64,000 bases of DNA, taken from Longimicrobiales bacterium (GTDB lineage Bacteria > Gemmatimonadota > Gemmatimonadetes > Longimicrobiales > Gaopeijiaceae). The stretch covers positions 1,312,001 to 1,376,000 of the forward strand of contig CBDFMQ010000002.1 of NCBI GenBank assembly GCA_965249725.1, read 5' to 3'. The notes beneath the pieces are model-generated. The model worked only from the letters and a program-made list of their open reading frames with translations, was not told the origin of the DNA and did not search any database. Below, one piece after another: positions 13,813 through 17,036 of this stretch. The translations under genes and the position numbers were made by a program. How positions within the stretch are numbered: position 1 is the first letter of the stretch; each line of letters starts with the position of its first letter.

Positions 13813-14937
13813 CTACGGCCGCCGTGACTCCATCAGCGCGATGAACTGATCGAAGAGGTACCGGCTGTCGTGGGGCCCCGGCGCCGCCTCTGGATGGTAC
13901 TGGACGGCGAAGACCGGCCGCTCCCGATGGGCCACGCCCTCTACGGTGCCGTCGTAAAGATTGACGTGTGTGAGTCGCAGATCCGGCGCCCCGGGAATCT
14001 CGTCGCCGTCGCCGAGGGCCACGGCAAATCCATGGTTCTGAGAGGTGATCTCCACGGTATCGGTGTCGAGATTGCGTACCGGGTGGTTCCCCCCGTGATG
14101 TCCGAAGGGGAGCTTGTAGGTCTTGGCACCGAACGCCTGAGAGATGAGCTGGTGGCCGAGGCAGATCCCGAACACGGGGACATCGTTCCCGGACAGCTCG
14201 AGGATCGCGGCCTCTGCCCGCTCGACGGCAGCGGGGTCACCGGGTCCGTTGGATACGAACATCCCGTCGGGACGTTCGGCCAGAATGTCCTCCAACGAGG
14301 TCTCGGCGGGAATCACCGTGACGCGGCAACCTCCCTCAGACAGAATCTTCGGCGAGTTTGCCTTGACGCCGAAGTCGTAGGCCAACACATGGAAGCGTTC
14401 CTCCCCGACCGCCTCCACCACATAGGGCTCGTCCGTGGAGACACCACAGGCGAGGTCGAGACCCTCCATACGGGGGTGCGCGAGCACGCTTTCGAGCAGC
14501 GTCGCCTCGTCCGTCTCGGCGGGCGCGATGGCTCCTCGCATGGCTCCCTCCGACCGGATGTGTCGGGTGAGCGCACGGGTGTCTATCTCCGCGATCCCCA
14601 CCACGTCGTTGGCCGTGAGGTAGTCCTCCAGCGCCCCCGTCGCCCGCCAGGACGAGTGTTGCGGTGGCAACTCACGCACCACGAAGCCGGTGACCTTCGG
14701 ACCTTCTGACTCCCGGTCCTCGTCGTTCACCCCGTAGTTGCCGATCAACGGATACGTCATGACGACGTGCTGACCGGAATAAGACGGATCCGTGAGGATC
14801 TCCTGATATCCGGTCATCGAGGTGTTGAAGACCACCTCCCCCAGAGAGGGTCCTGAAGCGCCGAAGCCGAGGCCGTCGAAACGCCGTCCATCTTCGAGTA
14901 GAAGGTACGCGGGTTCGCGTGGACCGGTGCTCGCCAC
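13813..14937 (-). CDS. carA: Carbamoyl-phosphate synthase small subunit
   Basis: GEVVFNTSMTGYQE, SNGPGDP, GICLGHQ and QYHPEA motifs. Confidence 0.97.
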   Translation of the reverse strand: MASTGPREPAYLLLEDGRRFDGLGFGASGPSLGEVVFNTSMTGYQEILTDPSYSGQHVVMTYPLIGNYGVNDEDRESEGPKVTGFVVRELPPQHSSWRATGALEDYLTANDVVGIAEIDTRALTRHIRSEGAMRGAIAPAETDEATLLESVLAHPRMEGLDLACGVSTDEPYVVEAVGEERFHVLAYDFGVKANSPKILSEGGCRVTVIPAETSLEDILAERPDGMFVSNGPGDPAAVERAEAAILELSGNDVPVFGICLGHQLISQAFGAKTYKLPFGHHGGNHPVRNLDTDTVEITSQNHGFAVALGDGDEIPGAPDLRLTHVNLYDGTVEGVAHRERPVFAVQYHPEAAPGPHDSRYLFDQFIALMESRRP

Positions 14938-14991
14938 CAGGCAGATTCCTAGTCTTGGGTGGTGCCGCCAGAAGCCTCCGACGGCCGGCGG

Positions 14992-15019
14992 AATCTAGAG
15001 CGGGACGGAGGCGAGTCAA
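14992..15019 (-). promoter_or_regulatory. Putative sigma70 promoter of carA
   Basis: Minus strand TTGACT-N16-TAGATT, 55 bp upstream of carA. Confidence 0.5.
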
Positions 15020-15125
15020 GCACTGGTGTCACCCGTTCCGCCCCTCCTCTCCTCACCCTACCTTTCTCCCGACCCGCCGGGGTTCCCGTAAGCGAAGTTC
15101 CTACAAGAGAAGAAGACGAGTTGAA

Positions 15126-15695
15126 ATGACCGACGCGCCCGAGATCTCCATTTACGCCGACGAGTCGTGCCTCGGCAACCAGTTCCAGCACCGTGCCAAT
15201 CCGGGAGGTGCCGGGGGGCTGGTAGAGTACTGGTCGGGAGGCGAGTGGGTGCGTCGCGACTACTGGGTCTCCGAAGCGGACACGACGAACAACCGCATGG
15301 CCCTCAGGAGCGCCATCGAGGCCCTGACCTTGATGCGAAAGCGCCCGTGCAACGTCCGTTTCATATCCGACAGCCAGTATCTGGTCAAAGGAATGACGGA
15401 GTGGCTCAGGGGGTGGAAGGCCCGGGGTTGGAAGCGAAAGGGGGGCGAGATCGGCAACTTGGAACTCTGGCAGGAGCTCGATCGCATCGCCTCGAAGCAC
15501 GACGTGACCTGGAGTTGGGTCCGCGGACACGACGGTCATGTCCAGAACGAATACGCCAACCACCTCGCCACCCGAGCGGCCGCGGAGCGGACGGCCTCCG
15601 GAGGATTGGTGGAGAGCGAGTACCAGGTCTGGCTGGAGGGGCAGCGCGACAAGGGCCGCTATCTCGACTACTTCGAGCACGCCCCGCCCGACTGA
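15126..15695 (+). CDS. rnhA: Ribonuclease HI
   Basis: IYADESCLGN, TTNNRMAL, ISDSQY and WVRGHDGHVQNE motifs; start at ATG 15126. Confidence 0.9.
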   Translation: MTDAPEISIYADESCLGNQFQHRANPGGAGGLVEYWSGGEWVRRDYWVSEADTTNNRMALRSAIEALTLMRKRPCNVRFISDSQYLVKGMTEWLRGWKARGWKRKGGEIGNLELWQELDRIASKHDVTWSWVRGHDGHVQNEYANHLATRAAAERTASGGLVESEYQVWLEGQRDKGRYLDYFEHAPPD

Positions 15696-15726
15696 TCGCT
15701 CCCACGCTCAGACAAACATCTGGGGC

Positions 15727-15770
15727 AAAAAAAAGAAGCCCTCGGTGCGGCAAGCCGCCCCGAGGGCCTC
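15727..15770 (-). terminator. Intrinsic terminator closing the candidate ncRNA
   Basis: Minus strand GAGGCCCTCGG-GGCGGCTTGCCGCA-CCGAGGGCTTC followed by T8. Confidence 0.88.
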
Positions 15771-16073
15771 TAATTCGTTGGTAGAAGCTTCGTCTCGTTT
15801 GGAGACCCGCCCATCTTCCAGATCGCCTTGCGGCTCACTTTCAGTCGGGCAGCTAACTCAGCTTCCCTTCTCCCGTCGTCGCGCGGTCAGCAACTTCGGG
15901 TCCTCCGAGCTCCGGAGGGTTCAGCAGAGACCAACGACTCCTCTGCCGGCTCACCGAGGTCCAACCCCCAGTTCGCTTCCACCGCTACGGCGTCCCGTCC
16001 GATGAAACACGTTTCTCGATCCGCATGAAGGGATGACCAACGCCATCGATTCAGCGTACCACATCGGAAACGC
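15727..16073 (-). ncRNA. Candidate large structured non-coding RNA (~345 nt), family not recognised
   Basis: Lies between the convergent genes rnhA and lipB. Bounded by a promoter and a terminator, densely base-paired, and has no credible ORF. Confidence 0.65.
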
Positions 16074-16079
16074 ACGACC

Positions 16080-16108
16080 AGTATGGGCGGGCCGAGCCCA
16101 CGCGTCAA
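16080..16108 (-). promoter_or_regulatory. Sigma70-type promoter of the candidate ncRNA
   Basis: Minus strand TTGACG-N17-CATACT; predicted +1 near G16073. Confidence 0.7.
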
Positions 16109-16316
16109 GCTTCTCGGCCCATCTCATTCCAGAAACTTGCATTATCCCCTAACTCATTGTCATATCAAGGTTTAAGGAACGTCTAGAGACGTCGGTATTC
16201 TCTCCCGAATCGAACGTAAACAGATTGATCTTCTCGGCATGTGTGAGGAACCACGGGCCAGATCGGTTGGCTGAATTCGAAAAAATGGCGGAGCCTGCCT
16301 AGGACTTCCAAGACCT

Positions 16317-17036
16317 TCAAAGAGCCTCGATGGAGGGCTCATTTGTTGGCCCGCCAACACGAATTCGCCGCCCAAAGGCGCTTGCGAAGACATCGCGAAC
16401 GACAGCGGCGACTTCGCCAACCCGAATCGGACGGCCGGCCTCTTGCGAAAGCGAGGTGACCGAACGGTCGGCGATGCCGCACGGCACGATGGTCTCGTAG
16501 TAGGAGAGGTCGCTGTCGACGTTGAGTGCGAAGCCGTGAGAGGTGATCCACCCGGAGGACACGCGGACGCCGATGGCGGCAACCTTGCGGTCCTCGACCC
16601 AAACGCCCGTCAGCCCGGGCACGGTCTCTCCCTGAACTCCGAAGCGAGCCATGGCGGTGATGAGCATGGTCTCCAGATCTCGCAGGTAGCGGAGCAGGTC
16701 TCGGCGGTCGGGCTTGAGATCGAGGATCGGGTAGCCCACGAGCTGGCCCGGCCCATGGTACGTGACGTCCCCTCCCCTTCCCGCCTCGTAGAGCTCGAGG
16801 TCGAGCTCCTCCCTACGAGTGGCGTCGGCCAAAACGTGTTCGGGATGGGATCCTGTTCCCAGGGTGATCACGTGGGGGTGCTCCAGAAGGAGCAGTTGGT
16901 CGGGCACCTCGCCGGCGCGGCGGCGGGCCACCAAATCGGTTTGGAGTGCCAGGGCCTCTCCGTACGGGACGAGCCCGAGATCCCGTACCTCGAGTACCTC
17001 AAGTTCCTTGAGCTCTGGCGCGTCACCCGGGGACAC
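16317..17036 (-). CDS. lipB: Lipoyl(octanoyl) transferase
   Basis: LLLEHPHV, RGGDVTYHGPGQLVGYP, SHGFALNV and IVPCG motifs. Confidence 0.96.
   Translation of the reverse strand: MSPGDAPELKELEVLEVRDLGLVPYGEALALQTDLVARRRAGEVPDQLLLLEHPHVITLGTGSHPEHVLADATRREELDLELYEAGRGGDVTYHGPGQLVGYPILDLKPDRRDLLRYLRDLETMLITAMARFGVQGETVPGLTGVWVEDRKVAAIGVRVSSGWITSHGFALNVDSDLSYYETIVPCGIADRSVTSLSQEAGRPIRVGEVAAVVRDVFASAFGRRIRVGGPTNEPSIEAL

Follow-up and report, generated by a model that had tools for sequence, protein, structure and literature searches.

The window, the whole 64,000-nucleotide stretch of DNA analysed here, carries a gene for a structured RNA on its minus strand, in an interval bounded on one side by lipB and on the other by a convergent RNase H gene (Table 1). 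An initial annotation of the letters alone had proposed a trans-acting large RNA of an unfamiliar family, with its own promoter, terminator and pseudoknot. We found that the RNA gene and these three elements stood up to analysis, whereas about half of the helices that had been drawn by hand had to be re-assigned. The gene is independently transcribed, non-coding and single-copy, and specifies a structured RNA of approximately 270–345 nt; its family has no description in Rfam 15 or in the literature searched, and was detected in Gemmatimonadota alone. That this is a real, new, structured RNA gene we hold with high confidence. Its newness is that of an RNA family without a detectable relative, as orphan structured RNAs in general are already known.

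Table 1 Features of the RNA locus. RNA position n corresponds to window position 16074 − n.
Feature	Window position	Strand	RNA position	Remarks
lipB	16317–17036	−		Pfam LplA-B_cat
−35 box TTGACG	16103–16108	−		Promoter scan; conserved TTG[AC] upstream of homologues
−10 box CATACT	16080–16085	−		6 nt ahead of predicted start
Whole RNA gene	15727–16073	−		347 nt, predicted +1 to end of U-tract
5′ domain (P1, P1a, P2)	16009–16073	−		
P1	16073–16063 with 16020–16009	−	1–11 with 54–65	84% of cells paired; double changes in 11 of 11 pairs
Second long-range helix, 5′ strand GUGGU	16058–16062	−	12–16	Pairs with P7 loop
P1a	16056–16050 with 16029–16022	−	18–24 with 45–52	Outside R1; strand-swap test
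P2 hairpin	16047–16042 with 16037–16032	−	27–32 with 37–42	99.6% of cells paired
P3 hairpin, conserved GGGACGCC tip	15978–16006	−	68–74 with 90–96, plus 76–79 with 84–87	93–98% of cells paired; double changes in 10 of 10 pairs
P4 hairpin, loop GUUGGA	15953–15972	−	102–108 with 115–121	About 90% of cells paired; double changes in 6 of 6 pairs
P5 hairpin	15922–15948	−	126–133 with 145–152	Stem 93% paired; loop 15940–15930 holds 5′ strand of pseudoknot (15937–15930)
P6 hairpin CCUCCG/CGGAGG	15902–15918	−	156–161 with 167–172	94% of cells paired; double changes in 5 of 5 pairs
P7	15872–15900	−		Outer and inner stem, loop UGACCGC
P7 outer stem	15900–15897 with 15875–15872	−	174–177 with 199–202	Three of its pairs kept in 76–83 of 90 sequences
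P7 inner stem	15894–15890 with 15882–15878	−	180–184 with 192–196	95% paired
Second long-range helix, 3′ strand ACCGC	15887–15883	−	187–191	In P7 loop
Pseudoknot UCGUUGGU/ACCAACGA	15937–15930 with 15782–15775	−	137–144 with 292–299	MAFFT covariation
Pseudoknot 3′ strand ACCAACGA	15775–15782	−		Just ahead of terminator
3′ domain	15784–15865	−		Judged on MAFFT columns, independent of R1
P8, helix closing 3′ domain	15865–15860 with 15789–15784	−		13 close relatives
GCCC/GGGC inside 3′ domain	15850–15847 with 15812–15809	−		13 close relatives
GCC-GCAA-GGC hairpin inside 3′ domain	15834–15825	−		13 close relatives
Intrinsic terminator	15727–15770	−		Bulged hairpin 15770–15735 and U8 15734–15727
RNase H gene (rnhA)	14919–15695	+		

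The transcription signals that had been proposed for the gene were confirmed and are conserved. TTGACG and CATACT, 17 nt apart, form one of two promoter-like sites that a promoter scan found in 15000–17000, where 0.1 were expected. Of 78 homologues of the type found in the window's family (f1), 76 have a TTG[AC] box that begins 32–40 nt ahead of the model start, the distance being exactly 35 nt in 57. A strict promoter test was passed by 52 of 90 homologues, and in 38 of these 52 the end of the −10 box lies 6 nt ahead of the model start. With its hexamers in the 16–18-nt spacing range and just upstream of the RNA start, which is itself predicted, the site is a putative sigma-70-type promoter. 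At the other end, the hairpin and U8 tract are plain in the sequence. A simple scan overlooked this terminator because its stem is bulged, but a strict script detected a terminator-like hairpin and U-tract 3′ of the RNA in 59 of 89 homologues; in most of the 30 that failed, a strong G+C hairpin is followed by a U-tract that is weaker. A G+C-rich hairpin followed directly by a U-tract is what is expected of a Rho-independent terminator, and we assign it as such by prediction. Strong folding had also been claimed, and the minimum free energy of −157.5 kcal/mol against −135.1 ± 6.0 for shuffled sequences (z = −3.71; 1 of 100 shuffles as stable) bears this out.

Comparison with known RNA families returned no relative. 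Rfam 15 (4,227 families, judged by each family's gathering threshold) gave no match in the 64-kb window, with raiA, OLE, GOLLD, ROOL, HEARO, IMES and the riboswitches among the families searched. At E values up to 10, just three hits fell in 15500–16400, all below the Rfam threshold: ctRNA_p42d (22.7 bits against 50) and suhB (15.8 against 41), both over the terminator, and a snoRNA of 13 bits. When 20 homologous loci were searched against Rfam 15 with E values up to 1 allowed, four hits appeared, all below threshold, and the body of the RNA drew no recurring family; sodF_sRNA (36.7 and 33.9 bits against 46) lay on the 3′ hairpin of two of these loci. As had been claimed, the RNA is not a tmRNA, RNase P RNA, SRP RNA or 6S RNA. 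ARAGORN returned nothing in the window, tmRNA included, RF00023 had no match at the RNA locus, and the paired tRNA-like ends and tag frame of tmRNA are absent from it; the tmRNA of this genome lies elsewhere (C3:1085584-1085941, 177.2 bits). RNase P RNA (RF00010) likewise had no match at the RNA locus and is found at C3:2533181-2533564 (261.6 bits), and SRP RNA (RF00169) showed no domain IV match there, its best hit in the genome being at C3:612447-612545 (39.7 bits against a cut-off of 40). 6S RNA (RF00013) matched neither the RNA locus nor any other part of the genome. Full-text literature searches, judged on the search listings, returned no description of such an RNA. The passages searched in a 2026 preprint on non-coding clusters (bioRxiv 10.64898/2026.10.21.760802) do not mention Gemmatimonadota; its supplements could list matching clusters.

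We examined the distribution of the RNA among genomes. By blastn, the stretch has a counterpart in 15 of 41 related genomes. For wider searches we used a covariance model, R1, which comprises the 5′ 202 positions and 51 pairs set by hand. In the window's family, 87 of 151 genomes had an R1 match; the corresponding figures are 61 of 110 for high-quality genomes and 59 of 81 for genera. Carriers nearly always have a single copy. Across the phylum it matched 16 of 151 genomes, with three certain families: 5 of 16 genomes in f1, 1 of 1 in f3 and 8 of 31 in f5. In f4, the largest family of the class, 1 of 71 genomes matched (L161), at a doubtful 32.5 bits, and we treated this match as unconfirmed because P3 and P5 are missing in the alignment. 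There were no R1 matches in the phylum sample in f2 (0 of 2, a count that includes one genome flagged as unpublished, G025) or in seven other families (0 of 29).

Absences within the window's family are frequent. R1 had no match in 64 of the 151 genomes (42%), including complete single-contig ones, although these absences, like those in the phylum sample, are soft because just 16 candidates per genome were scored. At the rnhA locus of five such genomes (four of them complete and in a single contig), where tblastn verified RNase H genes at 56–59% identity, even a search without filters did not reveal the RNA. The best match from that search, L232 at 18 bits, was rejected, as it looks like the reverse complement of coding sequence. 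Given these absences, the RNA is either not essential or diverged beyond the model. A motif-pattern scan of named genomes returned at least 120 stretches, almost all of them chance matches; nhmmer confirmed five among those listed, labelled Gemmatimonadota, Gemmatimonadales or Longimicrobiales. A motif pattern also matched 25 viral contigs, as would be expected if the RNA belonged to a phage or other mobile element in the manner of GOLLD, ROOL and HEARO. The model confirmed 0 of the 25, a number close to chance by our own estimate, and the lipB, E2 and carA genes of the window had no tblastn match in these contigs; moreover, the RNA is single-copy and syntenic.

A reading as the gene for a small protein meets similar difficulty. 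Open reading frames of 63–73 codons overlap the region in the window, but no reading frame is conserved: of 89 homologues, with lengths of 217–307 nt, only 12–20 remain free of stops over ±120 nt in any given frame. The earlier call of a non-coding RNA thus agrees with the homologues, and we consider that a mobile element or a small-protein gene is the least probable of all the explanations weighed here, to the point of being negligible.

The genomic context, analysed with Pfam on the flanks of 25 loci, bears on whether the RNA acts in cis. In f1 and its sister family f3, E2 acyltransferase and lipB are usually followed by the RNA, convergent rnhA and carA, in that order. Thus, the RNA lies 3′ of lipB on the same strand in most genomes of the family, and in one locus (L009) rnhA is absent and carA directly follows the RNA on the same strand, as a lipB 3′ untranslated region or a carA leader or riboswitch might require. 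A conserved promoter separates lipB from the RNA, however, a terminator follows the RNA, and a convergent gene lies between the RNA and carA in most genomes. Two loci have an upstream gene other than lipB (L148 and L150; RelA/SpoT and signal peptidase), one locus has an additional methyltransferase, and in f5 the neighbours are unrelated in 10 of 10 loci. A cis element is largely refuted by these observations and is highly improbable. Because the flanking genes are wholly different in the second carrier family, the RNA is not an mRNA leader, in agreement with what the initial annotation had said; more generally, it appears to be neither an mRNA leader nor an antisense regulator nor a coding sequence. 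Nothing in the neighbourhoods of the 25 loci pointed to a partner protein.

Contigs from RNA libraries match the predicted RNA. A word index returned 14 DNA-type holders and six metatranscriptome runs, the latter with approximately 0.15 of the sampled words. Four metatranscriptome runs from as many studies were compared, and in all of them the contigs matching at 85% or better fell on 15774–16075, inside the predicted RNA. One sediment run held 705 such contigs, 61 of them at 99% identity or more, with a summed word depth of up to approximately 9.3 × 10^5; the other three held 5, 20 and 7. The high-depth contigs come from sediment, salt-marsh and marine metatranscriptomes and resemble Gemmatimonadota. 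Assembled contigs of this kind report presence in RNA libraries rather than strand, ends or level, and DNA can occur in such libraries. In the four RNA runs, with RNA libraries alone being compared, there was no contig over the flanks (15650–15754 and 16091–16250) or the terminator hairpin. The contigs of the four studies stop near 15774–15784, although contig ends are not molecule ends. Two adapter-like loose ends lie at 15775 and 16055.

To describe the fold we aligned the 92 R1 hits to R1, an alignment that is fitted to the model and leans towards it. In these 92 sequences, 92.2% of 4,567 cells were paired, compared with 74.8% for shuffled sequences, a type of control that overstates significance for related sequences, and 38–47% for slid partners. 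Double (compensatory) changes occurred in 50 of the 51 modelled pairs. The 5′ domain is followed by a row of hairpins, P3 to P7. The closure that had been drawn for a first domain (RNA 1–12 with 70–84) was paired in 69% of cells without compensation, and P1 takes its place. P1a lies outside R1, and here native strands gave a mean of −6.3 kcal/mol against −3.6 for swapped strands and beat the median swap in 74 of 80 sequences. The proposed stems GCAGAG/CUCUGC (P5) and CCUCCG/CGGAGG (P6) were supported by covariation, whereas the CGG-UGAG-CCG hairpin, paired in 70% of cells, is incompatible with P4 and P5. The closure proposed for the second domain, GCGGU/ACCGC (GCGGU at RNA 89–93), was paired in 74% of cells without compensation. 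The P4 loop reads UUGGA or UUCGA in relatives, and the outer stem of P7 changes, for example, to CCUCCG/CGGAGG and CCCUCG/CGAGGG.

The 3′ domain contains an insertion in the window's own clade, and its helices were counted in 13 close relatives. The closure GAAGCU/AGCUUC (P8) was paired in 70 of 78 cells, and the GCCC/GGGC stem (51 of 52) and GCC-GCAA-GGC hairpin (38 of 39) are supported within the insertion, all three as first drawn. By contrast, the mini-hairpins ACUGAAAGU (19 of 39 cells paired) and AUCUGGAAGAU (30 of 52) and the GUCUC/GAGAC pairing (35 of 64) were not conserved even among these close relatives. Shorter forms of the RNA have an equivalent hairpin, P9, that is paired in 70–88 of 90 sequences. 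The domain also includes a conserved unpaired CCAAA, which is CCAAG or CGAAC in relatives. A smaller form of the RNA, found in f5 and in f3 representatives, is without P1a and P2 and measures approximately 220–265 nt up to the 3′ tail. Several unpaired nucleotides are nearly invariant: GGGACG at the P3 tip (GCGACG in about half of the relatives), UUGGA/UUCGA in the P4 loop, AAGGG after P7 and CCAAG in the 3′ domain.

Two long-range helices join these elements. For both, pairs were counted in 91 full-length sequences aligned with MAFFT, an alignment that was not fitted to the pseudoknot; one sequence, L167, was left out because its 3′ domain could not be aligned. The pseudoknot that had been proposed between the P5 loop and the 3′ tail proved real. 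Its six core pairs are kept in 88, 90, 91, 91, 91 and 84 of the 91 sequences, compared with 24–64% of cells paired in slid controls, and five of the six show double changes, in 8, 1, 14, 3 and 4 sequences (C-G to U-A in 8 and 14 sequences, U-A to C-G in 3, G-C to A-U in 1 and G-C to U-G in 4). Single sequences combine two or three compensations at once, such as GUGUCGG with CCGACA. The initial annotation had also raised the possibility of a switch through a second CGUUGGUC copy, and this did not find support: in 35 of 80 sequences that copy is mismatched with the 3′ tail at a position that covaries perfectly with the P5 loop. The copy is the loop and 3′ arm of the local hairpin P2, which is gone in the smaller forms.

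The second long-range helix is a new contact that had gone unnoticed. It also explains the earlier GCGGU/ACCGC pairing, as ACCGC pairs instead with GUGGU (16062–16058). This 5′ strand lies in the P1 internal loop here and, in the small forms, in the P1 apical loop. The helix has four core pairs, retained in 81, 83, 85 and 85 of 87 sequences, with double changes in 10, 10, 5 and 4 sequences and 22–54% of cells paired in slid controls; its variants include GCGG/CCGC, GUGG/CCAC, ACGG/CCGU, GCAG/CUGC, GCGAC/GUCGC, ACGAG/CUCGU and AAGC/GCUU. RNAalifold proposed three pairs between 16060–16058 and 15783–15781; these compete with the pseudoknot, and the P7-loop pairing explains the strand better. On the comparison of sequences, we regard the two predicted tertiary helices as independent of each other and as proven by their compensatory changes.

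How might such an RNA work? On balance, we lean slightly towards a stable, abundant trans-acting RNA that functions through its three-dimensional fold, most likely by binding a protein and regulating or scaffolding it, a claim that we make jointly with that of the RNA gene itself; the trans-acting reading of the initial annotation is supported. The row of hairpins from P1 to P9 would be pulled into a compact body by the two long-range helices, the P5 loop pairing with the 3′ tail just before the terminator and a 4–5-nt strand of the P1 internal loop pairing with the P7 loop. This folding could bring the near-invariant unpaired nucleotides together as a surface or pocket, and the compact RNA would then most likely bind, regulate or scaffold a protein in trans. 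The narrower proposal that the RNA acts by binding protein, as a ribonucleoprotein or a sequestering RNA, is tentative and falls somewhat short of an even chance. A function without counterpart among known bacterial RNAs, either as a new natural ribozyme or as the RNA core of a novel ribonucleoprotein, is possible but rather doubtful.

A ribozyme, processing itself or acting on another substrate, would draw its active site from the invariant unpaired nucleotides. The size of the RNA, the number of its helices, its two tertiary helices and its invariant joining regions are compatible with this idea; large ribozymes are of comparable complexity. The adapter-like loose ends in the contigs could mark ends of the molecule inside the gene, but contig ends are no evidence of cleavage. 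No Rfam ribozyme family resembles the RNA, the sole hit being a 22.9-bit CPEB3 match elsewhere in one locus, and no conserved substrate gene or mobile element adjoins it in the 25 loci. We therefore regard catalysis as unlikely.

Conserved single-stranded motifs such as the GGA-containing loops, AAGGG and CCAAG, rather than the fold, could be the working part, with the fold as a scaffold, in a base-pairing small RNA or a CsrB-type protein sponge. Like small RNAs, this one is equipped with a promoter and a terminator of its own, and GGA occurs here in several loops (GGGACG in P3, UUGGAC in P4 and AAGGGA). GGA is not kept, however: P3 has GCGACG in about half of the relatives, P4 has UUCGA in the smaller forms, and the many conserved GGA hairpin-loop motifs that define CsrB/RsmZ are not found, GGA being replaced in many homologues. 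Furthermore, sponges and seed-type small RNAs rarely show such covariation plus two tertiary helices, and this explanation is quite improbable.

We also considered whether the RNA stands in for 6S RNA in this lineage, as an abundant, RNA polymerase-binding RNA like the mycobacterial Ms1. RF00013 finds 6S RNA in 0 of 119 genomes of f1, f3, f4 and f5, the four families of the class. Elsewhere in the phylum it does so in 10 of 19 genomes, drawn from three families, in which the order at the 6S site is pheT, zapA/zapB, 6S, rny. The zapA–rny spacer here is just approximately 120 nt and therefore too short for 6S RNA, and the metatranscriptome contigs suggest that the new RNA is abundant. Nevertheless, the minimum-free-energy fold and the structure supported by covariation are both a row of hairpins with two tertiary helices, not a rod of approximately 185 nt with a closing stem, a central bubble and a terminal loop. 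One f5 genome combines the new RNA (79.5 bits) with a rod-like RNA of 197 nt that occupies the zapA–rny site (−104.6 kcal/mol, z = −6.71, no Rfam match); the new RNA and a rod-like 6S candidate therefore coexist there. Three f4 genomes have neither the new RNA nor a 6S-sized space at zapA–rny, and the RNA is missing from 42% of the family genomes searched. We judge a 6S substitute to be very unlikely, and return to a protein-binding or scaffolding RNA that depends on its fold as the preferred reading.

Among known systems, raiA motif RNA is similarly orphan, abundant and independently transcribed, with a few hundred nucleotides and a multi-helix architecture with pseudoknots. raiA motif RNA is named after a neighbouring gene that it does not regulate, and its hosts are Firmicutes and Actinobacteria. 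There was no cmscan match between the two, and both hosts and helix layout differ. OLE, GOLLD, ROOL and HEARO share with the new RNA an ornate, covarying fold and restriction to particular lineages. They are larger, and several reside in prophages, transposons or membrane-protein operons; the new RNA, by contrast, is single-copy and chromosomal, has no fixed partner gene and has no Rfam match to them. 6S and Ms1 resemble it as abundant, housekeeping-type RNAs with a sigma-70-like promoter, and canonical 6S RNA is undetected in the lineage. Unlike 6S RNA, the new RNA has no rod-and-bubble fold, coexists with a rod-like candidate in one genome and is missing from part of the family. Similar in length are RNase P RNA and tmRNA, whose folds are likewise organised by pseudoknots and long-range helices, but the new RNA lacks a tRNA-like domain and a tag frame as well as motifs of the P4 type.

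Large, intricately folded bacterial RNAs without an assigned function are rare, and OLE, GOLLD, ROOL and raiA each started a new line of work. The comparative support for the present family is unusually clean, with covariation in 50 of 51 pairs and two independent tertiary helices besides, and its apparent expression in environmental RNA, as indicated by contig depth, is very high. Its compact size and its natural minimal variant of approximately 220–265 nt make it well suited to structure determination. The family is ready for RNA annotation now, and it offers a concrete target for pull-down, deletion and cryo-EM in Gemmatimonadota, a phylum that is common in soils and sediments and has received little molecular study.

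In other families of the phylum, the spacer between zapA and rny harbours canonical 6S RNA. At this position, genome G075 of family f5, a family in the same class as that of the window, carries a rod-like RNA of 197 nt with a folding energy of -104.6 kcal/mol (z = -6.71). This RNA, probably a 6S RNA that has diverged, had no match in Rfam, even when E values up to 0.1 were admitted. In the window's own genome, the ancestral 6S site spans only about 120 nt, in which a small hairpin and a stretch resembling a promoter are present, and a search with RF00013 found no 6S RNA anywhere in that genome.

Upstream of the structured RNA between lipB and rnhA, we observed a second promoter-like site (TTGATA-16 nt-GATAAT, 10/12 matches), which is stronger than the site that fits the RNA start and lies approximately 60 nt upstream of it. 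The TTGAC -35 box is absent from the f5 copies of the RNA (loci L152-L162). Approximately 35-55 nt before the RNA begins, these copies have in common a palindrome of the form TTCAGGGAAT(N)CCC, and they also share an AGATT-like element near -10. This arrangement may represent a regulator site or a different type of promoter.

Within the RNA, the loop of hairpin P4 has the sequence UUGGA in the family; in the small forms, the shorter f5 and f3 versions that do not have P1a and P2, it is GUUCGAA or GUUCGAC. This loop resembles the T-loop of tRNA, a motif that is frequently used in tertiary docking.

Features and their locations (window positions unless a locus is named)
Feature	Location	Strand
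Rod-like RNA in the zapA-rny spacer of G075	L291:3243-3439	minus
zapA-rny spacer of the window's own genome	L240:2826-2949	
Second promoter-like site	16141-16168	minus
P4 hairpin	15953-15972	minus
Copy of the RNA in G258	L167:1501-2030	

The copy in genome G258 is intact over its 5' 207 nt (196.9 bits). Downstream of GAAGGG, about 130 nt of unrelated sequence stand in place of the 3' domain, the pseudoknot 3' strand and the terminator, and rnhA comes next. Either the copy is truncated or decaying, or the assembly is faulty at this locus. Six genomes (G009, G232, G237, G239, G245 and G114) each gave two matches to the covariance model of the 5' 202 positions, some of them partial and covering model positions 96-196 only. 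The extra matches could stem from second copies, from fragments or from the ends of contigs.

The 3' end also varies. In one sub-clade (L011, L012, L013, L014, L050 and relatives), an additional hairpin of some 40 nt separates the 3' strand of the pseudoknot from the terminator, and its loop is often of the GCGUGA type. A GYGUG loop is likewise present in many terminator hairpins, so the 3' hairpins may do more than terminate. At L009 (genome G005), carA directly follows the RNA on the same strand with no intervening rnhA, and the 3' hairpin lacks a U-tract.
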